Numbered from the stretch's first letter, positions 9,470-55,321 are shown. The stretch: DNA of 57,384 nucleotides from an uncultured virus (IMG/VR IMGVR_UViG_3300033233_000011) (IMGVR_UViG_3300033233_000011); one strand, 5' to 3'. Made by a program: numbers and translations. The notes: generated from the letters alone by a model not told the origin.

Positions 9470-9913
9470 CTACCGATGATGCAGAACGGGGAGCTTCTTG
9501 TTGATGAAGTCCATCTCGTACTCTGACAAGTCCATACCGTCCTCGCGCTCGATCCAGAGGCTGTACGAAGTATTCGCGCCGGTACGGTAGTTCTCTTCCC
9601 CTTCGCTGACGATCCAGTCGTGCCTGCCCCGCGGACGCGACGACGACCACTCCAGCCACGTGTGATCGCGCACGACGCGGATCAGATCTTCGAGCGTGCC
9701 GTACTGCTCGCTCTTCTTTTCAATCCAGCCGCGCTCATCGGCATCGCCCTGCTCGGCGCTCTCGGGCGTCACGATCTCGTACGCCATCTTGTACCGGTAG
9801 CCGCCGTAGTCGGTCCAAGCATTGCGTCGCTCCTCGGGCATGTCTTCGAGGTCGTCCTCGGTGAGGATGGCGAGGCGCGGAGAGTTCGGATTCGAGAAGC
9901 GCGCGTAGTTCAC
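9470..9913 (-). CDS. RFSNP-tagged acidic hypothetical protein
   Basis: GTG 9913 overlaps the upstream stop; starts MNYARFSNPNS. Confidence 0.7.
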   Translation of the reverse strand: MNYARFSNPNSPRLAILTEDDLEDMPEERRNAWTDYGGYRYKMAYEIVTPESAEQGDADERGWIEKKSEQYGTLEDLIRVVRDHTWLEWSSSRPRGRHDWIVSEGEENYRTGANTSYSLWIEREDGMDLSEYEMDFINKKLPVLHHR

Positions 9914-10401
9914 GCGGCCCTCCGGACGATCTGCTTCGAAGTGATCCGGATCGCGTTGAACCTCTGGTTCGCCCGATGCGGCCCGAGCGCCCGTTCCTGC
10001 TCGACGATCTTCCTGCGCTGCTGCGTCGTCGGAGCGAACGAGAGCACGTACTTGCCGAACCGGAACAGGTGCGCCTCGCGCCCGTCGAGCGTCACTCGCT
10101 CGATGCTCTCGGGTGCGTCGAGACGCACCTCGTACTGGACCTTCTCGCCGGGAATGAATCCGTGCCAGGGATTGGACTGCTTGGTCGCCTCGGCGCCGCT
10201 CGGGTTCTCGACCCGCAGGTCCTTCTTCTTGACGAACAGCTTCTCGCCGTCGTCGAGCTTCACCCACGCGCCGCCGTAGACGATCTGCTCGACGCACCCA
10301 TGAGCGTGGTGCTTCTCGTCCACCATGAACCGGACCTGCTTGCCGGGCGCCATCGGGTGCGCGTCGCAGGCGTGCGGGTTCGAGAAGCGGGCGAAGTCCA
10401 T
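9910..10401 (-). CDS. RFSNP-tagged protein with small beta-barrel-like segments separated by NP motifs
   Basis: Starts MDFARFSNPH; internal RVENPS and KQSNPW. Confidence 0.7.
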   Translation of the reverse strand: MDFARFSNPHACDAHPMAPGKQVRFMVDEKHHAHGCVEQIVYGGAWVKLDDGEKLFVKKKDLRVENPSGAEATKQSNPWHGFIPGEKVQYEVRLDAPESIERVTLDGREAHLFRFGKYVLSFAPTTQQRRKIVEQERALGPHRANQRFNAIRITSKQIVRRAA

Positions 10402-10811
10402 CAGTCCCACCACGCGCGGATCTTGCCGTTTCGAAAATCCAACTCGTCGGGCCCTCTACTCTTGAGGATCGCCATCAGCGCCGCCTTCTTGCCCTTCTTC
10501 GGCGTGACGAGCAGCGTCGCCGCGTAGGGGCCGCAGTCGCGGGCGATGCGCCTCGGCTCCTTGTAGATCCCCGAGATCGTGACCCTGCTCGCGCCGGCTT
10601 GGTACAGGTCTTCGACGTGGCGAGCGATCTCACTCTTCGAAAAGGCCTCGCCCGCGAACGGGTACTGGTTCTCGTTGTCCCGGAGCCACGCTCGCGCCTC
10701 GGTCGAGGCCGGCACGCGCGACGGCTTGCAGTCGGCTTCTTCTTTCTGCTGTGCGGGCCGCGCCGCGGCCGACGGCTTCAAGAAGCTGAAGAGCTGGTCG
10801 AGGAACGACAT
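10401..10811 (-). CDS. Hypothetical protein
   Basis: 136 aa, coupled to both neighbours. Confidence 0.65.
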   Translation of the reverse strand: MSFLDQLFSFLKPSAAARPAQQKEEADCKPSRVPASTEARAWLRDNENQYPFAGEAFSKSEIARHVEDLYQAGASRVTISGIYKEPRRIARDCGPYAATLLVTPKKGKKAALMAILKSRGPDELDFRNGKIRAWWD

Positions 10812-11035
10812 CAGACCCGATCCGAGAGCGTGCGCCGCAAGAGCCCCGTCTGGTACGGATCGCCCTCCAGCCGGTCGTACAAGTAGACGACCACCGCCAG
10901 CGCCCGCTTCTTCGGCAGGAGGTCGAGCTTCTGGATCGCGTACGAGCGGTTGCCGTTCCGCCAGTCCTCGGCCAACTCGTCGGCGAGACGCGAGGCGCTG
11001 AAACCGTGCGGGTTCGAGAAGCGCGCGTAGGTCAT
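10811..11035 (-). CDS. RFSNP-tagged small protein
   Basis: Starts MTYARFSNPH at ATG 11035. Confidence 0.65.
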   Translation of the reverse strand: MTYARFSNPHGFSASRLADELAEDWRNGNRSYAIQKLDLLPKKRALAVVVYLYDRLEGDPYQTGLLRRTLSDRV

Positions 11036-11045
11036 CGCTGGCATC

Positions 11046-11630
11046 CTACCCGATCCACTCAAAGACGCGAAGCCCGAGCCCGTGCACCGTCCCCGCGGGC
11101 GTCAGCCGGCGCCACGTCCCGTCCGGCCCGACCTGGAACGTGACCGGGCTGCCCGCGGCCTCGCCCGCGCCGGCCCACTCGATCCACGCGCCGCCGAGCA
11201 GGATCATCTTCACGTTCTTCCGGGCGAACGGGTTCGACGGGCTCGGGTCGCGCACGAACGCCGTGGAGCCCGCGAACACGTGCAGCGGGTACTCGCCGCC
11301 GAGCGGCGCGCCGGCACCGAGCAGGGCCGCCGCCTCCTCCTCCGTCTCGGGCGCGCGGTCCACGTAGAAGGGCCGGCCGCCCACCGAGGGGCCCTTCATC
11401 GGGTCCGGGAGCTGCGGCCCGGCGTCCACCATGAGGTGCTGCACGCCGGGGTAGCCGCCCACGGGGTTCAGGTCCGTGGGCTTCGCCTGGTACGGCGGCC
11501 GCTTCGGGGGCGGCTCGATGTGGTCCCCGTCGGAAGGCGCCGGAGCAGCGGAGGCCGGCTTCTTCCGACCGACCCACAGCGCCCCGAGAGCCGCTGCGGC
11601 GCCGGCCGCCGCGACCCACCAAGTCTTCAC
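11046..11630 (-). CDS. Membrane-anchored putative virion protein
   Basis: GTG 11630; N-terminal WWVAAAGAAAALGALWVG; ends GLGLRVFEWIG. Confidence 0.65.
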   Translation of the reverse strand: MKTWWVAAAGAAAALGALWVGRKKPASAAPAPSDGDHIEPPPKRPPYQAKPTDLNPVGGYPGVQHLMVDAGPQLPDPMKGPSVGGRPFYVDRAPETEEEAAALLGAGAPLGGEYPLHVFAGSTAFVRDPSPSNPFARKNVKMILLGGAWIEWAGAGEAAGSPVTFQVGPDGTWRRLTPAGTVHGLGLRVFEWIG

Positions 11631-12748
11631 GCAGCCGCCGCTGCCGTGCGCGTCCTGAGGAGTGGCGGGATCACCTGCGCGCCGACGTAGAGCGCCGCCG
11701 CAGCCGCGGCGACCCACAGGACGGTCTTCAGCACGCCGCCGACCTGCTGCGTGATGTCCTCGCCCAGGTTCGACTTCGTCGCGCGTTCGAGATCCGCCTG
11801 GCTCTGCCGGATCGCGCCCTGCATCGCGGCGATCTGCTCGGGCGTGCACGGCGGCTGGCCCGGCTTGTTGCAGCCGAGTTCCATCGCCTTCGCGACGGTC
11901 TGCTCGTGCATCCAGACCTTGATCGCGTCGTGCGCCGAGACGCAGAGGTAGACGGTGGCGAGGGCCACCGCGGTGACGGCGATGATGGCGACGATGGTGA
12001 CGGGCTCGCCGACGCCGGTGCCGTGGACGACCTGGTTGGTGGAAGCAGAGACCACCACCGGCTGCCCGCCGCGATCTTCGAGCCTGAACTCGTCGCCCGG
12101 CAGCGCCCCGATGACGAGCTGGCCGCCGGCGTCGTAGCCGACCTGGCGCTTGCCCGACAGGGCGTCGTCGAGGAAGCTCGTCGCGACTTTCGAGAGCTGC
12201 CGCACGTCGAAGACGCGCTGGTTCTCGTCGGGTGAGAAGCCCTTGCCGATCGCCGCGAGCGTCTGCGTGCTCTGCTCGTAGACGCGCTTCGTAGAGTCCC
12301 AACCCGAGACGAGGTTGTTTCGAAGGGACCCGAAGAGGTCCGTGATCGCCGCGGCCGCGGGGCTCGCCTGCTCCTCGCTCGGCGGCGGAGCCGTGGGGCC
12401 AGACGACGGAGCGCCGCGCGCCTGCACTTCTCCCTGCACGCCCGGCGCGGCTTTCTGGCCGAAGAGTTCCCAGTGCCAGCCGCCCGACCCGCCCTGCCCG
12501 ACGGCCTGCTTCCAGACGAAGATCCCAGCCCAGTCGTACGAGCCTCCCGGCTTGACGTTCGAGTAGAGGACGGACTGCTGGTCGGACAGTTCGTTCCGGT
12601 TGAGCTTGACCGGACCCCAGGCGTAGAGCCGGACCCAGGAGGAGCCCGTCCACTGCCAGCCCTCGAAGAAGTAGTACTTCTTCTCCCAGATGAAATCGCC
12701 GAGGGCGCCGGAGGGCGGGTCGATCCACTCGAAGACGTTGGCGGACAT
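11627..12748 (-). CDS. Putative virion membrane protein (two TM helices)
   Basis: Starts MSANVFEWIDPPSGALG; Trp-rich N-terminal domain; TM segments IVAIIAVTAVALATVYL and VLWVAAAAAALYVGA. Confidence 0.7.
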   Translation of the reverse strand: MSANVFEWIDPPSGALGDFIWEKKYYFFEGWQWTGSSWVRLYAWGPVKLNRNELSDQQSVLYSNVKPGGSYDWAGIFVWKQAVGQGGSGGWHWELFGQKAAPGVQGEVQARGAPSSGPTAPPPSEEQASPAAAAITDLFGSLRNNLVSGWDSTKRVYEQSTQTLAAIGKGFSPDENQRVFDVRQLSKVATSFLDDALSGKRQVGYDAGGQLVIGALPGDEFRLEDRGGQPVVVSASTNQVVHGTGVGEPVTIVAIIAVTAVALATVYLCVSAHDAIKVWMHEQTVAKAMELGCNKPGQPPCTPEQIAAMQGAIRQSQADLERATKSNLGEDITQQVGGVLKTVLWVAAAAAALYVGAQVIPPLLRTRTAAAAA

Positions 12749-12786
12749 CCGAGAGGACGATACACGAGGGGCCCGCCCTCGTCGAG

Positions 12787-13014
12787 TCAAACTGTTTTCG
12801 TCGCGCGCCAGACGTTCCACGCGAACGCGACCGCGTTCAGGACGAAGCCCGCGATCACGACCTTCTCGATGACGGACAGGGACTTCTTCGTGCCGTTGCC
12901 GTTCGGCGGCACGGCGGGCGGGGGCGCGTCGCCCGGGAGCTGGCCGAGCAGGCCCGCCTCGTCGATCCACTCGACGACCGGCTGCGCGGGGATCCACTCG
13001 ACGATGGCGCTCAC
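12787..13014 (-). CDS. Small membrane protein with doubled EW motif
   Basis: GTG 13014; MSAIVEWIPAQPVVEWIDEAGLLG...VVIAGFVLNAVAFAWNVW. Confidence 0.65.
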   Translation of the reverse strand: MSAIVEWIPAQPVVEWIDEAGLLGQLPGDAPPPAVPPNGNGTKKSLSVIEKVVIAGFVLNAVAFAWNVWRATKTV

Positions 13015-13439
13015 CTCGTCCTCCACCAGACGAAGCCGACGATCCCCACCGCGAAGATCCCGAGGGCCCACTCGAACCTGCGCTGGATCTTCTGCACCTC
13101 GGGCTGCACTTCGAGCACCAGGCGCGGGAGTTCTTCTTCGAGCTTCGTCTGCAAGATCGGCCACGCGGAGTCGACGAGGTCCCGGCCGACGACGGGGGCG
13201 TACTGCCGCGCCCTCGTCATCGCGTCGTCGACGAGCGTCGGGACCCAGTAGCGCGCGTACGCCAGCGCGTCGCCGACGAGCGCCTGCGTCGGGAGCGTGA
13301 TCGCCTGGTTCGGGCCGCCGTAGACCTCGACGCCGAGGACCTTCATCACCGGGATGTCCACGAAGTACGTGCGGATCTCGCCGGGACCCGCGCCAAGGCG
13401 GCCGGGCTCGTCGGGGAGCCACTCGACGATCGCGCCCAC
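13011..13439 (-). CDS. Small membrane protein with C-terminal anchor
   Basis: MGAIVEWLPDEPGRLG...FEWALGIFAVGIVGFVWWRTR. Confidence 0.7.
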   Translation of the reverse strand: MGAIVEWLPDEPGRLGAGPGEIRTYFVDIPVMKVLGVEVYGGPNQAITLPTQALVGDALAYARYWVPTLVDDAMTRARQYAPVVGRDLVDSAWPILQTKLEEELPRLVLEVQPEVQKIQRRFEWALGIFAVGIVGFVWWRTR

Positions 13440-13442
13440 AGT

Positions 13443-14954
13443 TCAGCGCCCCCACACGTAGTACGCGACGCCGCCGGCCACCGCGAGCGCGCCGATGACG
13501 AGCGGGGCCTTGGACTTCGAGGAACTGCCGGATCCGGCTTCCATCGACGCCTTCGCCTGAGCCTTCGCCTGAGCCTTCGCCGCCGCCGCGTCGGCCACCA
13601 GCACGACCGCCGCCTTCTTCTTCATGGCCTCCAGCGACACGAGCCAGGCGATCCCCTGCTGCATGACGTCGGCGAAAGGCTGGCGCTGCGCGCCGAACCA
13701 CCATTTGTAGAGCGGCGGCACTCCGAGGCAAGCATCACGCGCGGCTACGGCCCCGTCGCGCCCCGCCTGCACGGTACTGCACTGACCGACCGCGTACGTC
13801 TTCAGGCCAAGTTGCACGAGCAACGTCCGCATGTCGAGCACGTTCAGGCGCCCGGCGTTGAGCTTGCCGGCGAGCTTCAGGAGGTCGTGATCGATCTGGT
13901 CCGCTCGCTCGTAGAGAGTAGCTTCCAGCTTCCTCACGGCGGCGTTCTGCTCCCAGTACTGCGCCTCCTCCGCAGCCCGTCGCGCCCTCTCCTGCTCCGC
14001 GGAGTCGTCGCCGAACAAGCTGCTCCAGACATCCGCGAAAAAATCGAAGATCGGGCCGGCGAGGTTGGCCGCCGCGCTCGAACAGATGTCGACGGCGACC
14101 GGACCGCCCTCCGCGCAGAACGCGCCGGCGGCGGCCCCCGCCGCGGCTTGCGCGCAGGAGCGCAACTCGGCGCGGCTCGTGCCCTTGCAGTTCTGCGCCG
14201 CGTCGATGGCGGCGTTCGACGTCGCAACCCCGAGCCACTCGACCCTCGTGTCCTCGGGCCCCGCGAGCCACGTGAACACGGGCCGCTCGTCCTCGGGGAT
14301 CCCATTCACGCCGACGAACATGCCCTTGGTGACGAAGCCGGACTTGTCCGGGTCCCACTTCGTCGGGTCGTTCCGGAGGCACACGTCGTCGTCGCAGCGG
14401 ACCTTCATGTCGGGCAGCGAGATGATCCGCTCGCGGGTGAAGTCCACGCACTTGCTGAGAGGAAAGTCGGTGGAAGGATCCGCGTAGTGCCAGCGCTTGC
14501 CGACGCGGACCGCGCACAAGACGTGCTCGATGTTCTTCTTCTTGTCGTAGGCATGGCCGACCACGAGCGTGTAGAGACCGACGGACATGAAGCACGACGG
14601 CAGCAAAATGGTTACGTCGTCGCAGTCCCCGCCCAAGAAACAGATCTCGTCCTTCGTGCTCCGGTCGCACGCCATCAAGTGAGCACCCGTCATGAACTCG
14701 GTGCCGACCGGATCCGGCGTCCAGAGCTTCCTCTGCACCGCACGCAGAAGGATCTCGGCGCGCTCGCGCTCCGTGTTCGCCTTCCGGCCTTCCTCACGCC
14801 GCGCGCGCTCCAGGCACTCAATGGCCCACGCCCGGACCTTCGGGCTCTGGTAGCCCTCGACAACCTTCTTGGCCACCTCCTCCAAGCTGAGGCGCACCCC
14901 GGCCTCTCCCCAAGGATGCTCTCGCTTCTCGATCTTCAACTCCTGCCCGAGCAC
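13443..14954 (-). CDS. Transglutaminase-like Cys-His-Asp protein (candidate maturation protease) with C-terminal TM anchor
   Basis: GDCDD...EHVLCAV...WHYADPS triad pattern; C-terminal LVIGALAVAGGVAYYVW. Confidence 0.75.
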   Translation of the reverse strand: MLGQELKIEKREHPWGEAGVRLSLEEVAKKVVEGYQSPKVRAWAIECLERARREEGRKANTERERAEILLRAVQRKLWTPDPVGTEFMTGAHLMACDRSTKDEICFLGGDCDDVTILLPSCFMSVGLYTLVVGHAYDKKKNIEHVLCAVRVGKRWHYADPSTDFPLSKCVDFTRERIISLPDMKVRCDDDVCLRNDPTKWDPDKSGFVTKGMFVGVNGIPEDERPVFTWLAGPEDTRVEWLGVATSNAAIDAAQNCKGTSRAELRSCAQAAAGAAAGAFCAEGGPVAVDICSSAAANLAGPIFDFFADVWSSLFGDDSAEQERARRAAEEAQYWEQNAAVRKLEATLYERADQIDHDLLKLAGKLNAGRLNVLDMRTLLVQLGLKTYAVGQCSTVQAGRDGAVAARDACLGVPPLYKWWFGAQRQPFADVMQQGIAWLVSLEAMKKKAAVVLVADAAAAKAQAKAQAKASMEAGSGSSSKSKAPLVIGALAVAGGVAYYVWGR

Positions 14955-14999
14955 GACGGGCAGCTTACGTCAACGGGACGCTCAGCGGAAGCCGGGCTT

Positions 15000-15275
15000 T
15001 CAGCGCCGACCGCGAGGCGCATGTTCCTGCGGCCCGCCCGCCTCGACGTGCGGAGCCAACTGCGGCGCCTGCGAGCGCTTGACCAGCGCCACGCGCTGCT
15101 CGTCGAACCAGAGCGACTCGCGCACACCGCCCTCCTTCGTTGGGTGCTCCGGGCAGATCAGGATCTGCGAGCAGCCGTACAGGTAGGCCGCGTGCCCGGT
15201 CGCGATCCCCTCGTAGCCCGAGATCGCGTCGCGCACCCGGTCACCCAGCGTCACCACCTCGAATTTTTTCGTCAC
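15000..15275 (-). CDS. Small phage-type hypothetical protein
   Basis: GTG 15275; LGDRVRDAISGYEGIATG...YGC...WFDEQR pattern. Confidence 0.6.
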   Translation of the reverse strand: MTKKFEVVTLGDRVRDAISGYEGIATGHAAYLYGCSQILICPEHPTKEGGVRESLWFDEQRVALVKRSQAPQLAPHVEAGGPQEHAPRGRR

Positions 15276-15286
15276 GTCTTTTCCTT

Positions 15287-15505
15287 TCAGCGGAAGCCGG
15301 CCGCCGCCTTCTCGAAGATCTTCGGGTCGAAGCTCGGCGCCGACCGGATCCGGTCCCACAGCTCCGCGCTCTCCGCCGCCCAGGCCGCGTGTGCGGCCGC
15401 AACGGGACAAGCCTCCGCGTGGTCCCACGCCCACGGCCGCTTCGGGCACGTGCACGCCGCCCCGAGCCGCGCGGCGTACTCCTCGAAGCTCTCCGCGAAG
15501 CTCAC
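15287..15505 (-). CDS. Hypothetical protein
   Basis: GTG overlaps the upstream stop; CTC...H..ACP. Confidence 0.5.
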   Translation of the reverse strand: MSFAESFEEYAARLGAACTCPKRPWAWDHAEACPVAAAHAAWAAESAELWDRIRSAPSFDPKIFEKAAAGFR

Positions 15506-15732
15506 CGGCCAGCGTTCTCCCGAACGCAGCGCGCGCACGGCTTCCCCTCGCCCGGCGCCTCGGCCCCGCAGCCCTCGCACAGGCCCATCGCGCGGCGGAT
15601 CTTCTGCATCGCGCGCAGCTCGACGAGCCGGACGCCCTGCCTTGTGATCCCAACGCGGCGGGCGACGGCGCGCTGGCCCTGATCGCCGCCGCGACCAGCA
15701 TAGACGACGCGCGCGGCGTTCGAGGCGCTCAC
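15502..15732 (-). CDS. Sigma70 region-4-like HTH protein with C-terminal CxxC...CxxC
   Basis: QRAVARRVGITRQGVRLVELRAMQKIR. Confidence 0.55.
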   Translation of the reverse strand: MSASNAARVVYAGRGGDQGQRAVARRVGITRQGVRLVELRAMQKIRRAMGLCEGCGAEAPGEGKPCARCVRENAGR

Positions 15733-16088: not shown

Positions 16089-17818
16089 TGCACGACCTCG
16101 ACCGGCGGCGCGGGCTCGGGCTCCGGCTCGACCTGCACCGACTCGAACACGATGTTGGTCGCGACCTGCAACGGCGGAGCGGGCGCGGGCGCGACGGGGG
16201 GCGGAGCGACGTACTGCTGCTGAGGCTGCTGCGGCTGCTGCGCCACGAACTGCTGCACGGGCGGCGGCTGAGCCGGGGACTGTGCCACCTTCAGGCGCTC
16301 GGTCGCGACGGCGGCCTCGGTCAGGGCCCTGGCCGCGCGCTCCGTGTCCACGATCTTCTGCTGCCGCGCCTGGGCCTGGTGGTCGGCCATCTTCTGCTGG
16401 TCCTCGCCCCGCTTGTCGAGGGCCTTGGTCACCTTCTCGAACATGTTCGAGACGAAGTCGGCGGCCTTGCCCGCGTTGAAGGCGGCGACCGTGTACGGGT
16501 CGCGCTGCCACTTGCCGTCGACGGCCACGAGGGTCAGGGGACCGGCCTCCCGGACCTGCACCGGGAAGTCGTCCTTCTCCTTGGGCGGTTCGGGGGCGGG
16601 TGGAGGATCGTCCTTCTCGGGCGGCGAGAACTCGCTCGCGACTTCTTTTCCCATCCGCATCATCTCGCGCACGACACCGAAGGACTCCCGGGCCTGGACG
16701 ACCGGATTCACGGGAGCGACGGGTGGCGCCGCAGGCTGCTGCGCCTGAGCAGGCGGCGGCGCCGCGAGCCAGTTCCACTGCCGGCCATCGAACTGGTGAC
16801 CGTTGACGATGTCGCCAGGTCGGTAGATCGGCTGAGGCTGAGGCTGGACGGGCTGCTGCACGGGAGCCGGCGCGGGCGCCGCGGGCGCGGGCTGCGCCGC
16901 CACTCCCGTCGCGCGCCGTTCGAGATCCGCCATGCGCTGGTCGAGGCTCCGGTTCACCTCCTCGGCCCGCGCGGCCCGGGCGTTCGCCGCAGACAGCTCG
17001 TTCACCAGGCGCATCGTCAGGTCGTTGTCCGGCGGGGGAGCCTGCGGCGGCGGGGGGGGCTGGTACGGCGCCGGAGCCGTGGGCTGCACGATCACCTGCG
17101 GCGGGGGCGGCTGCGGCTGCTGGTACTGCGGCTGCGGCTGCACCTGTGGCGGAGCCGCGGGCGGTTGTGGCTGCTGCGCGCCGAGCCAGTTCCACTGCCG
17201 GCCGTCGAACTGGTAGCCGTTGACGACGTCGCCCGGCCGGTAACCCGGCGGCTGGGGCTGCTGCTGGTAGCCGGGTCCGTAGCCGCCGCTCGGTGGTTGC
17301 ATCGGTCTCTCCTCGTCCGCGAGCGCGGATCCGTTCTTCCTCTCCGCCCACCGCGGGTCGGCGCGGAACTTGATCTGCCCGGTGGTCCAGCGCCGGCTCT
17401 CCTCGTAGATTTCCCACTTGTACGTCGCGTCCTCGCCGCGCCAGTGCACGTCGCGCACGTAGGCGATGATCTCGTCGTAGTCGCGGAAGCTCTGGAGCAG
17501 CCGAGCCGGGATGTTCTCGTCCTCGACGGGCAGGATCTGCGTGAAGCGCACGCGGCTGCTCGGGTAGAGCTGCTTGGCCTGCCGGAAGCGCGTCGGGTAG
17601 TCCGCGTTCAGGCGGACCTCCTTCTCGCCCGACAGGCGCCGCCCGACCTCCGACTCGGCCGAGTCGTTGATCCGCGCGCTCTCGTCGTCCAGGGCCTTGC
17701 CGCGCGCCTTGGAGATCGGCACGGGCCGGCCCGGATCCTCGCCGCCGCCCGCGGCGAGCGGGACGCTCGGGGCGGGCTCGCCGGCAGCGCCGTTCGGGTT
17801 GGTCTTGCGACGCGGCAT
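16085..17818 (-). CDS. Pro/Gln-rich coiled-coil protein with a duplicated 20-aa motif
   Basis: 577 aa; YRPGD[V/I]VNG[Y/H]QFDGRQWNWL occurs twice; starts MPRRKTNPNG. Confidence 0.75.
   Translation of the reverse strand: MPRRKTNPNGAAGEPAPSVPLAAGGGEDPGRPVPISKARGKALDDESARINDSAESEVGRRLSGEKEVRLNADYPTRFRQAKQLYPSSRVRFTQILPVEDENIPARLLQSFRDYDEIIAYVRDVHWRGEDATYKWEIYEESRRWTTGQIKFRADPRWAERKNGSALADEERPMQPPSGGYGPGYQQQPQPPGYRPGDVVNGYQFDGRQWNWLGAQQPQPPAAPPQVQPQPQYQQPQPPPPQVIVQPTAPAPYQPPPPPQAPPPDNDLTMRLVNELSAANARAARAEEVNRSLDQRMADLERRATGVAAQPAPAAPAPAPVQQPVQPQPQPIYRPGDIVNGHQFDGRQWNWLAAPPPAQAQQPAAPPVAPVNPVVQARESFGVVREMMRMGKEVASEFSPPEKDDPPPAPEPPKEKDDFPVQVREAGPLTLVAVDGKWQRDPYTVAAFNAGKAADFVSNMFEKVTKALDKRGEDQQKMADHQAQARQQKIVDTERAARALTEAAVATERLKVAQSPAQPPPVQQFVAQQPQQPQQQYVAPPPVAPAPAPPLQVATNIVFESVQVEPEPEPAPPVEVVQ
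16766..17243. repeat. Imperfect direct repeat of about 60 bp (16766-16826 and 17183-17243) within a CDS
   Basis: GAGCCAGTTCCACTGCCGGCCRTCGAACTGGT...GTTGACGAYGTCGCC present twice. Confidence 0.85.
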
Positions 17819-17820
17819 CG

Positions 17821-18135: not shown

Positions 18136-18137
18136 CT

Positions 18138-18290: not shown

Positions 18291-18340
18291 CTTGACGCCG
18301 CGGCGGCGCCCGCCGGGATTGATGGAGGAAGCGGCAGGGC

Positions 18341-23601: not shown

Positions 23602-23816
23602 GGCTGCCCGAGCAGCTTGTCGGCGGCGGCGAAGGTGATGTCCTTGGCCGCGCTGATCTTCTCCGCGGCCGCGTCCGCGGCCTCGTGCAGGCGCTCGGTT
23701 GCCTCCTGATATCTTTTTTCAGCCGCGTCGGCCGCCTTCGAGGCGGCGTCGCGGGCGGCCTTGAGCTTCGCGAGGCGCTGGCGCTGGGACTTGATGAACT
23801 GGTCGATGTCTTTCAC
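23598..23816 (-). CDS. Small coiled-coil protein
   Basis: GTG 23816 overlaps the upstream stop; Ala/Lys-rich. Confidence 0.55.
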   Translation of the reverse strand: MKDIDQFIKSQRQRLAKLKAARDAASKAADAAEKRYQEATERLHEAADAAAEKISAAKDITFAAADKLLGQP

Positions 23817-25531
23817 CCGAACAACTCCTCGCTGGCCCGGAGTTCCTTCCGGCCCTCGATCAGCTCCAGTGAACGCAGCTTGGAACAATAAGTCGAGTAC
23901 GATCCCGACGCCGCCGAAAGGTTCGCCGCCTCGCCGACCTCTTCGTGCGTGAGCGCCTTCGGGTACGCCTCGGCGACCGCGCGCAGGATCCGGGAAGCGC
24001 CCGACTCGCCCAGCTCGCGCAGCCAGTGTTCGAGCAGGTCGCGGCCGGTCGGCAGCGGGTCGTACGAGCCGAGCGCGGCGAGACCGGCCTCCGTGATCAC
24101 GATCCTGTCCGAGTGCCCCGTGATCCACGCCGACGAGCGGGCCTTGCCCACGTACGTCGAGAAACTACCCGACTTCGACGACAGGCCGGCGCGCACGCCG
24201 ATCTGCCGGTGGGTCAGGCCGTCCGGGCGCTGCGCGAGCGCGACGAGAATCCGGCGCAGGCCGCCGCGACCGACCTCGGGGTCGGCGGAGCCGGCGCCGT
24301 TCGAACGAGACGCAGCAGCGCGTGCGGGCGCAGCTTGGGAAGCTGCGCCCGCACGCGCTGGCGTGCTCAGGCGCGACACGCCGCGCTCGCCCATCGCCTG
24401 CGCGGACCGCAGGCGCTTCTCCATCGCGGCGTTGTTGGCCCGGGCGCGCTGGTGAGCGACCGTGAGCACACCGATGAGTTCCCCCAGGTTCGAGAGATCG
24501 GCCCCGGCTTCTCGTAGGCCCTCGCGGTCCACGATCGGGACCTCGACGATCTTCTGCTCGACCTCGGCAGCGGGCTTCTTCTGGAGTTCCGCCTTCAGGC
24601 GCGCGACCTCGGCGCGCAGGAGCTTCGGGTCCTCGGCCTTGGCGCGCTCGCGCGTCGCGGCCATCTCCTTCTCGATGGCGCCGAGGTCGACGTCAGCGAG
24701 CGTCGCCGTGCGCTTGCCGGCGCCGGCCACCGGCGTCGCGCCCGAGTCGAACGTGTGCGACAGGCGAAATCGGAAACGCTTCGTCAGGTGCAGGAAGTTC
24801 GGCGACCAGACCCACGCCTCCCCGTCGGCAAGACCCGGCAGGCTCGCCAGGATCTCGTCGCTCTGCGCGTGGTACTTGAGCCAGCCCTCGATCGCCTTGC
24901 GGTCCTGCGGCCCCGTCGTCCGCAGCGCGATCAGGGTCTGCACCTGCGTCAGCACCGACTTGTTGATCGCGGCCGATCGCTGCGTGATCAACGTGACGCC
25001 GATCCCGCGACCGCGCCCCCGCCGAACCAAGTTCTCCCACGCGCGCAGGAGTTGACCGTCGATGCCCTTGAAGCTCCCGGACTGCGGGATGTAGTCGTCG
25101 GCCTCCTCGCAAAACACGTGCAGCGGCTGCTCGTTGCGGGCGTACAGCCGACGCGCGAAGTCGTGCAGAAACTGCTTGCGCGCCGCCTCGCTGTCGAAGT
25201 CGCTCACGTCGATCACGCACGACAGGCGCTTGTCAACCACGAGGTCGGCCAGAAGAGAGCCTGCCGTTCGTTCGAGCGGCATGTCGCCGAGTCGGCCGCC
25301 GAAGATCGGGATCGGCAGCCCCGGTCCCTTGCCGTCGCGACTCGACCGCAAGCCACTCCACGACCCGACCGGATCGACCACCACGAACGGCAACCCCGCG
25401 GCGAACATCTCCTCGGCGAGCGCGCGGGCGGCGTTGGTCTTGCCAGCGCCGCGCACTGCGAGCAAACCGAAGGTCTCGGTCACAGCACTCGCCGGCAGAG
25501 AGAGGTCGTCGGAGACGACGAGCTTCTTCAC
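23813..25531 (-). CDS. HerA/FtsK-superfamily ATPase with C-terminal winged-helix domains
   Basis: AVRGAGKT Walker A, VVVDPVG, FCEEAD Walker B, RRGRGRGIGVTLITQR; two wHTH-like repeats. Confidence 0.85.
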   Translation of the reverse strand: MKKLVVSDDLSLPASAVTETFGLLAVRGAGKTNAARALAEEMFAAGLPFVVVDPVGSWSGLRSSRDGKGPGLPIPIFGGRLGDMPLERTAGSLLADLVVDKRLSCVIDVSDFDSEAARKQFLHDFARRLYARNEQPLHVFCEEADDYIPQSGSFKGIDGQLLRAWENLVRRGRGRGIGVTLITQRSAAINKSVLTQVQTLIALRTTGPQDRKAIEGWLKYHAQSDEILASLPGLADGEAWVWSPNFLHLTKRFRFRLSHTFDSGATPVAGAGKRTATLADVDLGAIEKEMAATRERAKAEDPKLLRAEVARLKAELQKKPAAEVEQKIVEVPIVDREGLREAGADLSNLGELIGVLTVAHQRARANNAAMEKRLRSAQAMGERGVSRLSTPARAGAASQAAPARAAASRSNGAGSADPEVGRGGLRRILVALAQRPDGLTHRQIGVRAGLSSKSGSFSTYVGKARSSAWITGHSDRIVITEAGLAALGSYDPLPTGRDLLEHWLRELGESGASRILRAVAEAYPKALTHEEVGEAANLSAASGSYSTYCSKLRSLELIEGRKELRASEELFG

Positions 25532-46368: not shown

Positions 46369-46695
46369 ATGGTCCTCGTGAACCGCTCCCCTCGCAAGAA
46401 GTGCCGCCAGCGCCGTCGGCGCCTCCCGCGCACCCACCGGCTCCCGCGCACTTTCACGTCCGCCGAGTTGCAGCGCGCCTACCGCGACGGCGTCGAGGAC
46501 GGCCTGCGGCAGGCCGGCGCCCGCGCGCTCCGCGTCGCGACCAGCGAGGAGGCCTGCCCGCACTCCCGGCACGAGCTGCTGGGCCTGTCGGTCGAGCTGG
46601 CCGAGAGGGGCGGCGACGTCGAGCTGGCGGCCGCGGCGCGGCGCATGGCGGAGCCTGGGCCGGTGGTGCTGATGTCGAAGGGGGGGACGGCGTGA
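46369..46695 (+). CDS. Hypothetical protein
   Basis: Stop overlaps the next start. Confidence 0.5.
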   Translation: MVLVNRSPRKKCRQRRRRLPRTHRLPRTFTSAELQRAYRDGVEDGLRQAGARALRVATSEEACPHSRHELLGLSVELAERGGDVELAAAARRMAEPGPVVLMSKGGTA

Positions 46696-47243
46696 CGGAC
46701 TGGGGGCGATTCTCGAATCCGATGCGCGCCGCGAACCCCGACGGCTCTCTAGGCCGCACGTGGCGCTCGCCCTCGGGCCTCCGCGAAGTCAAGCAGGAGG
46801 GCACGCGCGACGGCGTCCTACTCTACGCGGTGAGCACTGGCGGCTCTCGGCAGATGCAACTGATCCGCGCATCCGAACTTGAGGCCGAGATCCGTCGGGA
46901 CGAGCGGAACTACGAATCGCGGGCGGCCGGCGCTGCGAGCGCGCAAGTCGTTGCTACCGAAGCGCAGCAGCACAAGAGTTGGCTCGGCTTCACGGATGAT
47001 ATGAAGCCTACAGCAGCCGCGAGGGCAGACGAGGTTCTGTCTCGACAGGTGTACGTGCAGGGTCTGCCGGCGCAGCGCGGCGATCACATCATCCGGCTCG
47101 TGCGGGAGCACCGCATCGTGAAGATCCATCCACGGTACGGTCGCATCTTGGAGTCGCCGGACGGCTCGTTCTTGACCGAGAAGGACTTGACGAAGATCGG
47201 CTTGGACTTCGCGGGTTACTTGGCGAAGGGCGGGCAGGCGTGA
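46692..47243 (+). CDS. RFSNP-tagged hypothetical protein
   Basis: GTG 46692; starts MTDWGRFSNPMRAANPDG. Confidence 0.7.
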   Translation: MTDWGRFSNPMRAANPDGSLGRTWRSPSGLREVKQEGTRDGVLLYAVSTGGSRQMQLIRASELEAEIRRDERNYESRAAGAASAQVVATEAQQHKSWLGFTDDMKPTAAARADEVLSRQVYVQGLPAQRGDHIIRLVREHRIVKIHPRYGRILESPDGSFLTEKDLTKIGLDFAGYLAKGGQA

Positions 47244-48172
47244 CGGACTGGGGGAGGTTCTCGAATCCGTTGCGTGCCGCGAACCCGACCGACGGCCTCG
47301 GCGGCTCGCTCGACCGCGCGATGACCGACCTGCTCTCCTCCTGGAGCCCGGCGAAGGCTCAGCAGGTCGGGGCGTGGTTCGAAGAAAACTTCCGCGTGAG
47401 GTCCCCGAAGACGCCGCGCAGGATGAAGGGCCTCAAGGACCAGGCGGAGAAGCTCCGGTGGTGGCTCACGGCCGGTCCCAGCTCCTACGCGAACCAGCCC
47501 GAGACGGTCGAGCGCGAGGTCAGCCGGATCTGGTCGGAGATCCGGCCGAGGCTCGACGACCTCGTGGCCGGCTTCACCGACGAGGGTGGCGTCGTCGTGC
47601 CGAGAGAGGTCGTGGTCGGCGGGAACACGTACGTCAATGAGGTAGGCGCGAGCGAGGCCGCGCTCCGGAAGTACGTCGCGCGCCTCGAAGCCATCTTCGG
47701 CGACCTGCGCGGCTGGCACCGGCGGGCGCTGGTCGGCGGCGTGACCGTGGTGCTCGCGAGCCCGCGGAACTTCCGCGGGACTGCCGGCGGCGTCTACAAG
47801 AGGAGCGAGGGCGGCAAGCTCTACGTCCGGGCGACGCCCGACGTGCTCAACCGCACCGGCGGCGCCTACGGGAGCTTCGAGTACATCCTGACGCACGAGA
47901 TCGGACACCGCTACGAGGACAAGCACCGGCTGCCCGCGGACTTCGACAAGCCCGGGTGGTGGACGACGAAGTACAGCATGAACGAGGGCGAGAGCTTCGC
48001 CGAGCTGTTCGCGCTCAGCAACTTCGGGCTCCTGCCGCACCCGAGCCAGCGCCAGTGGGACCCGGCGGTCGTGGACCGGTTCGAGGCGCTGATGTCGAGG
48101 CAAGAAGGCGTCGCGAGGCCGGAGCTACCCGAGCACCTGCGACGGTTTCGCGAGGTAGTGAAGGGCGGGTAG
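47240..48172 (+). CDS. RFSNP-tagged zinc metallopeptidase (HExxH...E)
   Basis: Starts MTDWGRFSNPLRAANP; GGVY, LTHEIGHR, TKYS, ESFAELF. Confidence 0.8.
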   Translation: MTDWGRFSNPLRAANPTDGLGGSLDRAMTDLLSSWSPAKAQQVGAWFEENFRVRSPKTPRRMKGLKDQAEKLRWWLTAGPSSYANQPETVEREVSRIWSEIRPRLDDLVAGFTDEGGVVVPREVVVGGNTYVNEVGASEAALRKYVARLEAIFGDLRGWHRRALVGGVTVVLASPRNFRGTAGGVYKRSEGGKLYVRATPDVLNRTGGAYGSFEYILTHEIGHRYEDKHRLPADFDKPGWWTTKYSMNEGESFAELFALSNFGLLPHPSQRQWDPAVVDRFEALMSRQEGVARPELPEHLRRFREVVKGG

Positions 48173-48202
48173 GGCGCCGCCTTTTCGCCAGCAGTTCGGG
48201 GC

Positions 48203-53335: not shown

Positions 53336-53529
53336 AGCTTCTTGATCTCCGCGATCACGTTTCGGAGCTTCACCGTCGCCAGGTCCGTCGGGTGCGCCGC
53401 GGCCAGCAGTTCGAACACGCCGACGAGCCCCGCCACCCTCCGCGCCAGGGCCTCGACCACGAGCGGGTCCACGCCGCGCGCGGACTTGCGGACGAAGGTG
53501 ACGGCCCAGTCGGGGACGGTGGGCCTCAT
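53332..53529 (-). CDS. Small hypothetical protein
   Basis: ATG 53529 (MRPTVPDW...). Confidence 0.5.
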   Translation of the reverse strand: MRPTVPDWAVTFVRKSARGVDPLVVEALARRVAGLVGVFELLAAAHPTDLATVKLRNVIAEIKKL

Positions 53530-53594
53530 GAACGGTCTATGGCCGCCCGGATGAACGTCGCGGCGACTTGCGGGACGATGGCGTTGCCGTTCAC
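53526..53594 (-). pseudogene. Orphan duplicate of the C5-methyltransferase C-terminus (22-aa mini-ORF)
   Basis: Translates VNGNAIVPQVAATFIRAAIDRS*, versus the MTase end YGNAIVPHVAAVFVRAAMEAICAANS*. Confidence 0.8.
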
Positions 53595-54052
53595 GGAGAC
53601 ACCTTGAGCCACGCAGCAACTACCGACCGCAGGGTCGCCTCGCCCCAATCACCCATCGCGGCGTTCATCAGGTGGCACACGATCCGCACGTTGCCGACGA
53701 CGTAGCCGAGCTTCGGGTCGATCCGGTCAAGGCTAGGGCTGTTGAACTTCCGTCCGCCATCCAGGCCGAGCGCGATGCCGCTGACCGTGCATACGCCAGT
53801 ATTGATTTGGAATTGAAGAGCGGCGACGTCCGCCGCGCCAAGTAAAAACGGCAGCCCCCGGCGCTTGGCTCTGATCCGCGCCGCCGCAACGAGGCACATC
53901 GCCCGCTTGAGCTTGCGTCGATGCGTGCTCTTCTCTGTGAGGTAGTCGTGGTTCTCCGCACGCCACTCCGCCGCTTTGGCCCGGATGCGGTTGCCGTGTA
54001 ACGCCAACCGCTCTTTGGCGTAGCTTTTCTTTCGATCAACTGTTTGCGGCAC
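53591..54052 (-). CDS. HNH-like (His-Me finger) endonuclease
   Basis: CTVSG...SPSLDRIDPKLGYVVGNVRIVCHLMN. Confidence 0.8.
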   Translation of the reverse strand: MPQTVDRKKSYAKERLALHGNRIRAKAAEWRAENHDYLTEKSTHRRKLKRAMCLVAAARIRAKRRGLPFLLGAADVAALQFQINTGVCTVSGIALGLDGGRKFNSPSLDRIDPKLGYVVGNVRIVCHLMNAAMGDWGEATLRSVVAAWLKVSP

Positions 54053-55004
54053 AGATCGCCTCCATCGCCGCGCGCACAAACACAGCGGCTACGTGTGGCA
54101 CAATCGCGTTTCCGTAGGCTCTCAACATCCCGACCCGCGACGTTTCTTGACGGGTGCCGTCTGGTCCCACTCGGGCGGGAGCCCCATGAGCCAGCGGGAA
54201 TGTGCCGGGTTCAACTGGCCGGAGCTTTCCGTCGAGGCAGGGGAGCCAGTGGGCTCCGGCCCAGAAGCCACGTAGAGGGTCATCGCGTTTCCCAGCGTGA
54301 GGCCGAAGCCGTTGCCGTTCTTCGTTCGCTTCTTGCACTCGGCGCGGCGTTCCAGAAGTCGCTCGCGGTCGAGCGTTCGCATCTCTTGCGCGCTCGGGCT
54401 CGGCCAGTGCGCCAGCAGCACCGTGTCGTCGAGATTGCGCGGCGAACGTGGACGGAAGTGTCGCGCCGCTTGGCCGCCGCCCTCTCTCCCGTCGCGCCTC
54501 TGCGGTGTGGGCCACGAACCAGAGCCTTTGTCGGACATGCGGGGCACCGATGCCCGCAGCGCACAGATCCGCAGCCCCGAAAGCGTAGCCCTCTCCTTCC
54601 AAGTCAGCTTGAACAGCCCCGAGCCAAGCGAGGCCGTCGAAGCTCGCAACCTGCTCTCCAAAGACGATTGCAGGGCGGCACTCGCGGAGGAGCCGGAACC
54701 AGTCAGGCCAGAGGTGACGCTCGTCGCTGGCTCCGCGCTTTTGCCCTGCGTGCGAGAACGGCTGGCAGGGACAGGAGCCCGTCCAAACGGGAACGTCGTC
54801 TGGCCATCCGGCGAGCCGGAGCGCGTACGACCAGACCCCGACGCCGGCGAAGGCGTGGAACTGCGTAGCCCCGGCAACGTCGGCGGCTCGAAGCTCGCGG
54901 ATGCTGCGGTGTTCGACGGCGCCCGGAGCGATGTGACCGGCCGCGACGAGGTTGCCGAGCCAAGTTGCGGCGTATGGTTCAATCTCATTGTAAAGAGCCC
55001 TCAC
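54036..55004 (-). CDS. DNA cytosine-5 methyltransferase, large (alpha) polypeptide
   Basis: FAGVG (I), GSCPCQPFS (IV), GEQV (VI), RQRLWFV (VIII), YGNAIVP (X); no motif IX in this frame. Confidence 0.9.
   Translation of the reverse strand: MRALYNEIEPYAATWLGNLVAAGHIAPGAVEHRSIRELRAADVAGATQFHAFAGVGVWSYALRLAGWPDDVPVWTGSCPCQPFSHAGQKRGASDERHLWPDWFRLLRECRPAIVFGEQVASFDGLAWLGAVQADLEGEGYAFGAADLCAAGIGAPHVRQRLWFVAHTAEARRERGRRPSGATLPSTFAAQSRRHGAAGALAEPERARDANARPRATSGTPRRVQEANEERQRLRPHAGKRDDPLRGFWAGAHWLPCLDGKLRPVEPGTFPLAHGAPARVGPDGTRQETSRVGMLRAYGNAIVPHVAAVFVRAAMEAICAANS
54122..54988 (-). CDS. Nested alternate-frame small (beta) polypeptide of the C5-MTase; true start uncertain
   Basis: WPTP and WPSP repeats, plus motif-IX-like GQLNPAHSRWLMGLPPEW. 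Confidence 0.7.
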   Translation of the reverse strand: MRLNHTPQLGSATSSRPVTSLRAPSNTAASASFEPPTLPGLRSSTPSPASGSGRTRSGSPDGQTTFPFGRAPVPASRSRTQGKSAEPATSVTSGLTGSGSSASAALQSSLESRLRASTASLGSGLFKLTWKERATLSGLRICALRASVPRMSDKGSGSWPTPQRRDGREGGGQAARHFRPRSPRNLDDTVLLAHWPSPSAQEMRTLDRERLLERRAECKKRTKNGNGFGLTLGNAMTLYVASGPEPTGSPASTESSGQLNPAHSRWLMGLPPEWDQTAPVKKRRGSGC

Positions 55005-55321
55005 AATTTGATCTCGCGTGTTCCTGCCACTCGAACCCAACCAGCGGGGCCGGCTTCCCAGCGCCCCACGAGCTTCTTGCGGCGGACGCCGTAAGAGCCG
55101 GGACGGTCCGCAGTCCACACCTCGACCGCTTTCGTGCCGGGCTCCGACGTTGCCTTGGCGACGAGTTCTGCGGCCGACGGAAGATCGTGGACGGTAGTGA
55201 TGTTCGCGTCGCGTGATGGAGACACGCCAGAACGAAGTGCCTGATGCGTGTGCGGCCACGAGTACACCTCGAAGCTGCGGCCGCTGCCCATCGGATTCGA
55301 AAACATCTTCCAGTCGGTCAT
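55001..55321 (-). CDS. FSNP-tagged small protein
   Basis: ATG 55321 after GGAGG; starts MTDWKMFSNPMG. Confidence 0.65.
   Translation of the reverse strand: MTDWKMFSNPMGSGRSFEVYSWPHTHQALRSGVSPSRDANITTVHDLPSAAELVAKATSEPGTKAVEVWTADRPGSYGVRRKKLVGRWEAGPAGWVRVAGTREIKL

Follow-up and report, generated by a model that had tools for sequence, protein, structure and literature searches.

A short N-terminal peptide ending in F-S-N-P, common to six proteins, unrelated in other respects, of an uncultured virus from sediment, as a candidate address or processing tag

In phage T4, the first 10 residues of internal protein IPIII suffice for head targeting, and the capsid-targeting sequence (CTS) is all that its diverse internal proteins have in common (excerpts of PMC9026906 and PMC3012670). 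T-even internal proteins are described as basic, and the T4 prohead protease site is L/I-x-E (excerpts of PMC9026906). In phage P1, the 30 residues at DarB's N-terminus are sufficient, and residues 6-10 critical, for capsid entry of the protein and of a reporter; the Dar proteins have no consensus for this signal (excerpts of PMC9024508).

The window analyzed here is a 57,384-nt stretch from an uncultured virus (IMGVR_UViG_3300033233_000011), 57 of ~119 kb, with about 62 kb beyond it. Six of its proteins share a nine- to ten-residue N-terminal peptide ending in F-S-N-P, with the pattern M-x-x-[Y/F/W]-x-[R/M]-F-S-N-P. The genes (T1 to T6; "T4" below means the gene unless the phage is named) are spread across three transcription blocks, with three at 9.5-11.0 kb, two at 46.7-48.2 kb and one at 55.0-55.3 kb. 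T1 (9470..9913, minus strand; 147 aa, acidic with a pI of 4.8, GTG start) has the tag MNYARFSNPN, encoded at 9884-9913, and its start codon shares the sequence GTGA with the T2 stop. T2 (9910..10401, minus strand; 163 aa) has MDFARFSNPH (10372-10401), and T3 (10811..11035, minus strand; 74 aa) has MTYARFSNPH (11006-11035); between them lies U (10401..10811, minus strand; 136 aa), which is untagged and has no family match in Pfam, PHROG or NCBIfam searches. T4 (46692..47243, plus strand; 183 aa, GTG start) and T5 (47240..48172, plus strand; 310 aa, an M34-like zinc metallopeptidase with its body from about residue 18) have the long tags MTDWGRFSNPMRAANP (46692-46739) and MTDWGRFSNPLRAANP (47240-47287), each with a second A-N-P six residues further on. 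T6 (55001..55321, minus strand; 106 aa) has MTDWKMFSNPMG (55286-55321); its coding signal is the weakest (GC3 0.72), and JGI, Logan and ENA all list the 106-aa form. Apart from T1, the tagged proteins are basic (five of six, pI 9.4-10.0). The tag is followed by a flexible stretch rich in Ser, Pro, Gly and Ala. T4, T5, and T6 are not within the putative virion region but amid regulatory and DNA-metabolism genes.

An earlier sequence-only reading had placed an "RFSNP" tag within the first 10 residues of six proteins whose bodies share nothing, and all of this is borne out: the six tags are found at exactly those starts, the bodies are mutually unrelated (Smith-Waterman z ≤ 1.1 in all 15 pairs), and the sole similarity in an all-vs-all blastp search is in the first 21 residues of T4 and T5. 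Its view that several bodies are of lower GC holds for T1 (61.0%, 1st percentile) and T6 (63.2%, 8th), but not for T2-T5 (19th-65th percentile). For all eight proteins looked up (T1-T6, U, and the T2 relative P0092, discussed below), gene calls from JGI, Logan or ENA use the very same start codons.

Six-frame translation of the window gives seven occurrences of FSNP, six of them 5-6 residues past a start codon; the seventh (36516, plus strand) is in a frame antisense to a primase gene, with neither a start codon nor flank similarity. Composition alone predicts 0.044 occurrences over the 17,553 called residues as a whole. For residues 1-10 of the 91 genes the prediction is 0.0016, and six are observed. 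When residues were shuffled within proteins, the 4-mer common to the most proteins in residues 2-12 reached a maximum of three, and none of 2000 shuffles gave six. At the DNA level, the 12-mer TTCTCGAAYCCG has eight matches at ≤1 mismatch, where 100 shuffles gave 0.91 on average and never more than 3.

The six copies are not independent, because T4/T5 is a local copy and T1-T3 are clustered. An 88-nt direct repeat (46673..46760, plus strand, and 47221-47308; 80% identity) spans -19 to +69 relative to the T4 and T5 starts, including the Shine-Dalgarno region; over 17 codons pS is 0.32 and pN 0.08, and similarity stops sharply beyond. The T4 copy keeps a D-G-S-L-G matching the start of the T5-family body, and because of this remnant the T4 5′ end looks to have been copied from that of T5. 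When residues 1-40 of T4 were searched against 5.8 billion proteins (100-321 aa), the protein matched only itself.

Pairwise comparison of the core, R-F-S-N-P, gives pS 0.46 and pN 0.075, which is not the nucleotide-level conservation expected of an RNA or DNA element. Arg is encoded by CGC, CGA, or AGG and Asn by AAT (four) or AAC (two), with TCG and CCG invariant; the sequence-only reading was correct in saying that Arg and Asn codons vary and TCG does not. Third positions vary elsewhere in the tag as well (TTC/TTT, GCG/GCC). Because synonymous sites vary while amino acids barely do, selection on the tag is, judging from these comparisons, at the peptide level, in agreement with that reading. 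The codons are more uniform than free choice predicts (Ser TCG 6/6, genome 40%; Pro CCG 6/6, genome 64%; the rare Asn AAT 4/6, genome 9%), leaving room for shared descent or nucleotide constraint.

P0092, 69% identical to T2 over 67 residues, is the only relative found for T2. Its N-terminus (MNLFRRLSNPT) keeps F-x-R-[F/L]-S-N-P, although the next ~15 residues differ. The T5 body has 89 relatives, and none has SNP in its first 25 residues, where there are other N-terminal domains instead; since none of them carries the tag, it is portable, and with the bodies unrelated the earlier claim to this effect stands. No tagged relatives were found in IMG/VR, INPHARED, or 401 Planctomycetota genomes (a phylum that is a weak host guess). 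The pattern searched for in the latter (RTG-N9-MGN-TTYTCNAAYCC) gave 49 matches in 48 of the 401 genomes, and none of the 30 loci fetched had a credible gene start with x3-R/S-F-S-N-P.

The proposal that one tagged protein is a metallopeptidase is well supported in the case of T5. H219, E220, H223, E251, and E255 (HExxH plus a downstream Glu) are invariant in the 85 sequences of its alignment, and its model (pLDDT 92.4) aligns to the anthrax lethal factor catalytic domain (Z 11.0, rmsd 3.7 Å, 162 residues) and, with lower scores, to the M34 Pro-Pro endopeptidases (PPEPs) PPEP-1/Zmp1, PPEP-2 and PPEP-3 overall (Z 8.2-8.7, ~145 residues, 12-16% identity), including PPEP-1/Zmp1 (Z 8.7, 142 residues) and PPEP-3 (Z 8.6). 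From the model and motif, T5 can confidently be predicted to be a gluzincin of the M34 type, with HExxH plus Glu in a thermolysin-like fold. With Foldseek alone, nothing matched at E ≤ 0.001 (best E 0.02), and there is no Pfam family match; what this establishes is fold and motif rather than curated M34 membership. Residues 1-19 are modeled as coil, residues 1-7 fall below pLDDT 50, and the first helix begins at 20, so that the tag is predicted to be a disordered, free tail.

Our leading, though tentative, interpretation, held with somewhat less than even confidence, is that the tag is a portable, protein-level address or processing tag with a common reader, most likely one recruiting proteins to virus assembly; on this interpretation it is best read as analogous to the CTS of phage T4, while lying outside that family. 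The support comes from the position of the tag, the unrelated bodies, the constraint on the peptide, its retention in P0092, its absence from the 89 T5-body relatives, and the disordered T5 tail; a reader, the virion as destination, and any cleavage are inferred. Among the points against an address tag are the dependence among only six copies, the absence of the tag from the closest T5 orthologues (58-71% identical), and P0092 being the only tagged relative found anywhere.

Like the phage T4 CTS (on IPI-III and Alt, T-even relatives having CTS-like leaders), the tag is a leader of ~10 residues at the extreme N-terminus, and is the sole feature common to diverse, mostly basic accessory proteins from scattered loci (excerpts of PMC9026906 and PMC3012670). 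In these excerpted accounts the T4 leader is bipartite, residues 4 and 7 acting in targeting and 8 and 10 in processing; here a variable half precedes an invariant one. A possible processing enzyme itself bears a similar N-terminus in both cases (gp21 in the phage, T5 here). However, the sequences are unrelated, none of the six leaders has L/I-x-E in residues 1-16, there are only six carriers, and the window has no recognized gp21-type serine protease, scaffold core or HK97-type capsid. The resemblance to P1 DarB is in the use of an N-terminal stretch as a packaging signal, but where Dar proteins lack a shared consensus (excerpts of PMC9024508), here the consensus is the whole finding.

Among the window proteins searched (86 against Pfam, 54 against PHROG, 28 against NCBIfam) none was recognized as a capsid, portal, terminase, scaffold, or prohead protease, and for this reason 0-20 kb may be something other than a head module. 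The proposed capsid candidate, 5320-6606, drew no sequence match from Pfam, PHROG, NCBIfam, or PDB; its sole lead is a language-model one (0.77) to a PRD1-type capsid. The "related xxNP motifs" of the sequence-only reading do exist (KTQNP in this protein, RKTNP in g24, RRHNP/RHTNP in g9), but at chance level: apart from the six tags, Asn-Pro occurs twice in residues 1-20 versus ~3 expected. The g21 product (13443-14954) appears to be a transglutaminase-like cysteine protease carrying a membrane anchor at its C-terminus, rather than a portal or T4-type prohead protease.

One alternative, which we consider fairly unlikely, is that the tag is a cleavable propeptide, cut at or after Asn-Pro by T5 or another protease so as to activate or release the six proteins, or, in a variant, self-cleaved once docked. 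The M34 member PPEP-1 cuts after V-N-P, which makes T5 a candidate tag-clipping enzyme, as a lead only: PPEP-1 structures contain, by their titles, Ac-EVNPPVP as substrate and Ac-EVNP as product, and EVNP|PXPD served in assays (excerpts of PMC10413326), placing Asn-Pro at P2-P1. PPEP genes adjoin those of their substrates (same excerpts), as T5 adjoins T4, and T4 and T5 each have the second A-N-P. The transglutaminase-like g21 (with Cys-His-Asp) is 2.4 kb from T3. However, the PPEP consensus is XXPPXP, with Pro required at P1′ (excerpts of PMC10413326); none of the six tags (which have H, N, M, or L there) or the two second A-N-P motifs has it, and PPEPs are secreted bacterial enzymes. Z-scores of ~8.5 are common on the tool's own scale, so the fold gives no cleavage specificity; neither the lack of a Foldseek match at the threshold above nor the 89 untagged T5-body relatives favor this role. 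Asn|Pro autocleavage is documented for reovirus mu1/aquareovirus VP5 (N42|P43) and the anti-sigma factor RsgI, where an invariant Asn-Pro toward the N-terminus is cut to free a short N-terminal piece (excerpts of PMC10328401). There, though, one conserved fold supplies the catalytic carboxylate, a folded context unlikely to be common to six unrelated bodies, and the piece freed here would be only 8-9 residues.

It is also conceivable, but quite unlikely, that the tag is a historical by-product of the copying of working 5′ ends (ribosome-binding site plus first codons), with no common function. The T4 5′ end, with its remnant of the T5 body start, visibly illustrates such copying; the genes are clustered (T3-U-T2-T1 and T4-T5), and the lineage is very small, known from one genome present in two sediment metagenomes and from a single relative. 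On the other hand, values of pS of 0.32-0.46 against pN of ~0.08 indicate that enough time has passed for the copies to diverge, with the peptide nonetheless kept; F-S-N-P is exact in both of two tag subclasses differing by one residue in length, and P0092 retains the tag although adjacent residues have changed.

A third alternative, decidedly unlikely in our view, is that the tag docks proteins on a cellular or phage hub apart from the particle, for example as a degron by which a host AAA+ protease sets how long they last, or as a mimic of a host N-terminus. The location of T4, T5, and T6 away from the putative virion genes would suit such a role, and residues 2-6 (T/N/D-Y/F-A-R-F; D-W-G-R-F) loosely resemble ClpX N-motif-1, polar-T/hydrophobic-small-Lys-aliphatic (STAKL, TNTAKI, ATGKI, TIKV; PMC9775585 Table 2). 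That motif is E. coli-defined, and in the tags its Thr is replaced by an aromatic residue, its Lys by Arg, and its Ile/Leu/Val by Phe, while the invariant F-S-N-P has no counterpart in it. As for mimicry, the capsid and scaffold proteins of staphylococcal phage 80alpha have in common with ribosomal protein L27 a short N-terminal motif cut by the host cysteine protease Prp, which removes 13-14 residues, and other phages place it on non-homologous proteins (excerpts of PMC5744158). That motif copies a host protein; here the 30 fetched Planctomycetota loci offered no such model, this phylum being a weak host guess.

Finally, we consider it very improbable that the conserved unit is a nucleic acid (a translation-initiation cassette, translational-repressor operator, or recombination boundary at gene starts): the nearly invariant 12-mer, the over-uniform TCG, CCG and AAT, the T4/T5 repeat beginning 19 nt 5′ of the start codon, and the seventh exact 12-mer at 36516, away from any gene start, would fit, but pS is six times pN, the regions upstream of T1, T2, T3, and T6 have nothing in common, the 36516 copy lacks similar flanks, P0092 keeps S-N-P despite Leu for Phe and a one-codon shift, and the tags have 0 predicted consensus base pairs, no Rfam match, and no common hairpin.

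As an address tag, then, the motif would be aromatic-x-[R/M]-[F/L]-S-N-P, beginning 2-3 residues after Met and followed by the flexible stretch. Through it, accessory proteins that are mostly basic and otherwise unrelated would be connected to a single reader and, by analogy with the phage T4 CTS and P1 DarB signals, most likely recruited to viral assembly (particle or precursor), where they may be clipped at or after Asn-Pro. The tag would spread when the first ~20 codons and ribosome-binding site of one gene are copied onto another body. A more elaborate version, to which we give little credence, would be a new lineage with two orthogonal peptide codes: F-S-N-P on soluble basic cargo, clipped after Asn-Pro by the self-tagged T5, and E-W-[I/L] on four or more proteins with C-terminal membrane anchors, beside the transglutaminase-like enzyme. 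If true, this would be a metalloprotease-based analogue of the phage T4 CTS/gp21 system, and would point to a membrane-containing particle delivering a changeable set of effectors.

The peptide F-S-N-P occurs seven times in the six-frame translation of the window. In six cases it lies 5-6 residues past a start codon that has a Shine-Dalgarno-like sequence, and the coordinates are precisely those of the gene starts claimed in the sequence-only reading: T1 (9913-9470, minus strand), T2 (10401-9910, minus), T3 (11035-10811, minus), T4 (46692-47243, plus), T5 (47240-48172, plus), and T6 (55321-55001, minus). The N-terminal leaders ending in this tag fall into two sub-classes, M-x-[Y/F]-A-R-F-S-N-P-[H/N] in T1-T3 and M-T-D-W-[G/K]-[R/M]-F-S-N-P-[M/L] in T4-T6; in T4 and T5 the leader continues with R-A-A-N-P. 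Chance predicts 0.0016 tagged gene starts, against the six observed, and in 2000 within-protein shuffles at most three N-termini had a 4-mer in common, again against six. The JGI, Logan, and ENA gene calls gave identical proteins and starts in all eight cases looked up. That the remainders of these proteins (here called bodies) share nothing was borne out: leader-less bodies gave z ≤ 1.1 relative to shuffles for all 15 pairs, and blastp among the tagged proteins returned only the T4/T5 leader matches. The xxNP motifs proposed as an extension of the tag, on the other hand, occur at chance frequency. The seventh FSNP (36516, plus) is antisense to the primase gene, with neither a start codon nor flank similarity, and was rejected as a tag, as was a YESNPF in a longer form of gene g9 (the 562-aa g9 is on record, the 601-aa form is not).

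By analogy with known phages, the leader is tentatively read here as an address tag acting at the protein level. A single common partner would read it, the most likely purpose would be recruitment of the tagged proteins to the virus particle, and clipping of the leader close to Asn-Pro would be a plausible second step. The closest parallel is the capsid-targeting sequence (CTS) of phage T4: ten N-terminal residues suffice for targeting, the CTS is the sole sequence common to diverse, basic internal proteins, its targeting and processing halves can be distinguished, and the protease has a similar N-terminal sequence (PMC9026906, PMC3012670). The window tag would work like the CTS in logic, but the cleavage site that defines a CTS is absent from it, so that it is not classed as a member of that family.

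The metallopeptidase said to be among the tagged proteins is T5 (310 aa). Its residues H219, E220, H223, E251, and E255 do not vary among 85 sequences, and an AlphaFold model from the same alignment has a pLDDT of 92.4 and a pTM of 0.82; residues 1-19 are modeled as coil, with pLDDT <50 at residues 1-7. A Foldseek search with this model gave no match at E ≤ 0.001, though the top rows were all gluzincin peptidases. When re-aligned, model residues 118-291 matched the anthrax lethal factor catalytic domain at Z 11.0 (162 residues, rmsd 3.7 Å); for the Pro-Pro endopeptidases (PPEPs) PPEP-1/Zmp1 and PPEP-3, also of family M34, Z was 8.2-8.7. Since Z values of about 8 are commonly reached in structure alignment, the lethal-factor alignments exceed that level and the PPEP ones barely do. 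With 89 relatives (P0002-P0090) and no Pfam family, the T5 family can be read, from sequence and model, as M34-like zinc metallopeptidases that phages carry and whose N-terminal modules can be exchanged. SNP is found in the first 25 residues of none of the 89: 31 have an N-terminal domain of about 70 residues containing W-A-V-K-Q-Y, 20 more begin R-V-A-x-R-F, and the remainder include DUF5661 or LigT/Acb1-like N-terminal domains, the latter a 2H phosphoesterase in one (P0049). In the closest orthologues (P0002-P0009, 58-71% identical) the 70-residue domain takes the tag's place. At one locus (L048) a 2H-phosphoesterase-like gene lies directly downstream of the T5 relative; an apparent tag at 13443 of this locus is inside a 489-aa ATPase gene and was discarded.

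T5 is, by analogy, a candidate for the enzyme that clips the tag, because V-N-P occupies the non-prime side of PPEP-1, which cleaves behind the Pro (separating EVNP from PXPD), PPEP genes adjoin those of their substrates (PMC10413326), and T5 and the adjoining T4 each contain S-N-P and A-N-P. Titles of PPEP-1 entries among the structure matches name substrate and product peptides consistent with a cut after V-N-P. Against T5 as the clipping enzyme, PPEPs require Pro at P1′ (PMC10413326), whereas Pro follows none of the eight N-P motifs of the leaders. A first alternative, a pure processing tag cut by T5 or another protease, with no addressing role, is considered unlikely.

A second alternative makes the tag a historical by-product of the copying of gene 5′ ends. 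An 88-nt repeat shared by T4 and T5 spans −19 to +69, and because D-G-S-L-G, left over from the body start of the T5 family, survives in the T4 copy, the 5′ end of T4 was probably copied from T5. Over the 17 codons compared, the two differ at four synonymous and three non-synonymous positions (pS 0.32, pN 0.08; descriptive figures), and similarity ends there. As an account of all six leaders, copying is rated rather improbable. For T2 the one relative is P0092. It shares 69% identity with T2 in a core of about 45 residues at the center, and its N-terminus (M-N-L-F-R-R-L-S-N-P-T) retains the tag, with Phe replaced by Leu and one residue added, while the roughly 15 residues past the tag and the entire C-terminal half differ. 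Judging from these relatives (89 untagged for T5, one tagged for T2, and the T4/T5 repeat), the tag is portable and lineage-restricted.

T4 residues 1-40 searched against 5.8 billion proteins gave two candidates, of which the query itself was the only one to pass. A six-leader profile run against 1.84 billion representatives at E ≤ 0.001 is without power for a lone 9-residue tag, which is below its reach; its eight hits were the window's own T2 and T3 and six repeat-rich proteins matching by multiplicity. Among INPHARED phages, neither megablast of 9-20 kb nor tblastn of g8 (5320-6606) and T5 gave a match, and IMG/VR, searched by protein or alignment, had none for g8, T5, the close T5 group, or T2 with P0092. 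Four codon-degenerate tag patterns matched 55 IMG/VR loci, but those inspected were internal, short, or low-GC ORFs and were not accepted as tagged genes; about ten are one family with an internal ...ELARFSNP..., and one (L057, an ORF of 56-63 aa) is ambiguous. JGI metagenomes yielded three distant T5 loci, all untagged. Among the 185,579 species genomes of GTDB a single T5 relative turned up, located on a Planctomycetota MAG contig of 3.7 kb (L059/L060, G001). Of the Planctomycetota genomes sampled, g8 was found in 0 of 401, the T2 family in 0 of 391, and the T5 family in 1 of 401; given this last figure, the contig is probably virus DNA binned with the MAG and hints only weakly at a Planctomycetota host. 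A full-text literature search for the string RFSNP found no paper about a peptide motif. The window DNA is present in two sediment metagenome runs, each from a different study; one run may be its source, and the other contains low-depth pieces that are nearly identical, differing at one position (10529). No RNA sequencing run was listed as containing it.

A third alternative, in which the tag docks proteins to some other hub or has them degraded by it, is considered quite improbable. Finally, a nucleotide-level element is the most doubtful of the explanations weighed here: tag codons are more uniform than free choice predicts (AAT 4/6, TCG 6/6, and CCG 6/6, in a genome where AAC makes up 91% of Asn, TCG 40% of Ser, and CCG 64% of Pro codons), but Arg (CGC/CGA/AGG), Ala (GCG/GCC), and Phe (TTC/TTT) codons vary, pairwise pS in the R-F-S-N-P core is 0.46 vs. 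pN 0.075 (descriptive figures from non-independent pairs, with no hypothesis test), and the tags gave no consensus RNA structure (0 pairs), Rfam family, or common hairpin. The sequence-only reading's observations of synonymous Arg variation and invariant TCG hold, and its preference for peptide-level selection is supported. Upstream regions of the tagged genes are unrelated, T4/T5 excepted, and promoter and terminator scans found nothing exceeding shuffles. The constraint on the address tag is accordingly best read, on the codon evidence, as acting on the peptide, with the codon uniformity partly due to shared descent. GANTC methylation sites in the tag (119 across the window, hence not rare) were discarded as an idea, and AT-rich start regions (AT3 13.3% in the first 11 codons vs. 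10.6% elsewhere) as an explanation of AAT.

So far, the surroundings lend no support to a head module. The window (57,384 bases, G+C 67.5%) belongs to a contig of some 119 kb, on record as 119,293 and 119,384 bp. The 0-20 kb block, proposed to be a structural module, has no match in Pfam, PHROGs, or NCBIfam except for an unknown-function PHROG on g22 (15000-15701), and no capsid, portal, terminase, tail, or protease family was recognized in it; nor was any terminase, portal, or prohead protease family recognized in the 57-kb window, half of the contig. Language-model neighbors of g8 are unnamed viral proteins, and of the named Atlas clusters the PRD1 P3 double-jelly-roll capsid lies nearest to it (score 0.77, a lead only). 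An Atlas model of the N-terminal ~230 residues of g21 (13443-14954, minus) could be aligned with transglutaminase-like proteins of viruses (TM by row 0.78-0.88, which does not suffice for a family name), and the sequence has G-D-C-D-D ... E-H ... A-D-P-S, as in Cys-His-Asp enzymes; g21 is a candidate for a protease or cell-wall enzyme rather than a portal. Past this domain it has an E-W-L motif, an Ala-rich region, and, by eye, a hydrophobic extreme C-terminus (A-P-L-V-I-G-A-L-A-V-A-G-G-V-A-Y-Y-V-W), while a TM scan flagged residues 114-132 only. Given the lack of known families, the PRD1 P3 lead, many membrane-anchored proteins, and a HerA-like ATPase (23813-25531), a membrane-containing, non-HK97 virion is a possibility; equally possibly, the real head and tail genes are in the other half of the contig.

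By family search, the middle of the window is a block of replication and nucleotide genes ordinary for phages: ThyX, a DHH protein, MazG-like, DUF3310, a PD-(D/E)XK nuclease, a DnaG-type primase, two helicases, a Tad2-like domain, HNH, FHA, and a sigma-70 region 4 protein. The Tad2-like (Thoeris anti-defence 2) domain (27655-28230, minus; E 2.4e-23) marks a likely anti-defence gene. CTCGAG and GAATTC are absent from the 57 kb, where TCGA occurs 580 and GATC 525 times, and their absence may reflect restriction-site avoidance. A minus-strand ORF (48697-48203) considered as UDG-like had no family match.

A second motif, [V/F/C/I]-E-W-[I/L]-[D/P/G/E], occurs 11 times in the 4,913 residues of genes below 15 kb (2-14954, minus), where about 0.75 are expected, and five times in the other ~12,900; a repeat finder recovered it independently (families D1, D3, D15, and D17). 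It lies in the first 10 residues of the 474-aa form of g3 (start 2887), ORF 3669-2884, g18 (12748), and g20 (13439), occurs twice in g19, lies inside g1, g3, and g21 at what look like domain borders, and is C-terminal in g2. Hydrophobic C-terminal segments were scored by TM scan in g3, ORF 3669-2884, g18, and g19, and seen by eye in g20 and g21. In g1 (2-880, minus) an H-E-V-G-H (HExxH) precedes the E-W-L motif and the C-terminal half is Cys-rich, making it a possible second metallopeptidase. The N-terminal ~130 residues of g9 (6667-8355, minus) are extremely basic, repetitive, and Lys/Arg/His-rich (repeat family D2). After them come R-R-H-N-P, R-H-T-N-P, and a stretch weakly resembling LysM, and g9 may act as a core protein that condenses DNA. 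The Pro/Gln-rich g24 (577 aa) contains an 81-nt direct repeat (16752-16832 / 17169-17249, 84% identity).

To our knowledge, experiments have shown leader peptides that load arbitrary proteins into the particle in very few phages, T4 and P1, and short leaders of this kind are useful handles for protein delivery into bacteria. If the address-tag reading is true, a second, unrelated peptide with T4-type logic would show the strategy to be general, in a virus with virion genes unlike any known ones and in which a metalloprotease possibly replaces the serine prohead protease, and would make available a compact tag of nine residues. If the tag is instead a relic of 5′-end copying, it would still be a clear example of new phage genes made from an existing translation start.
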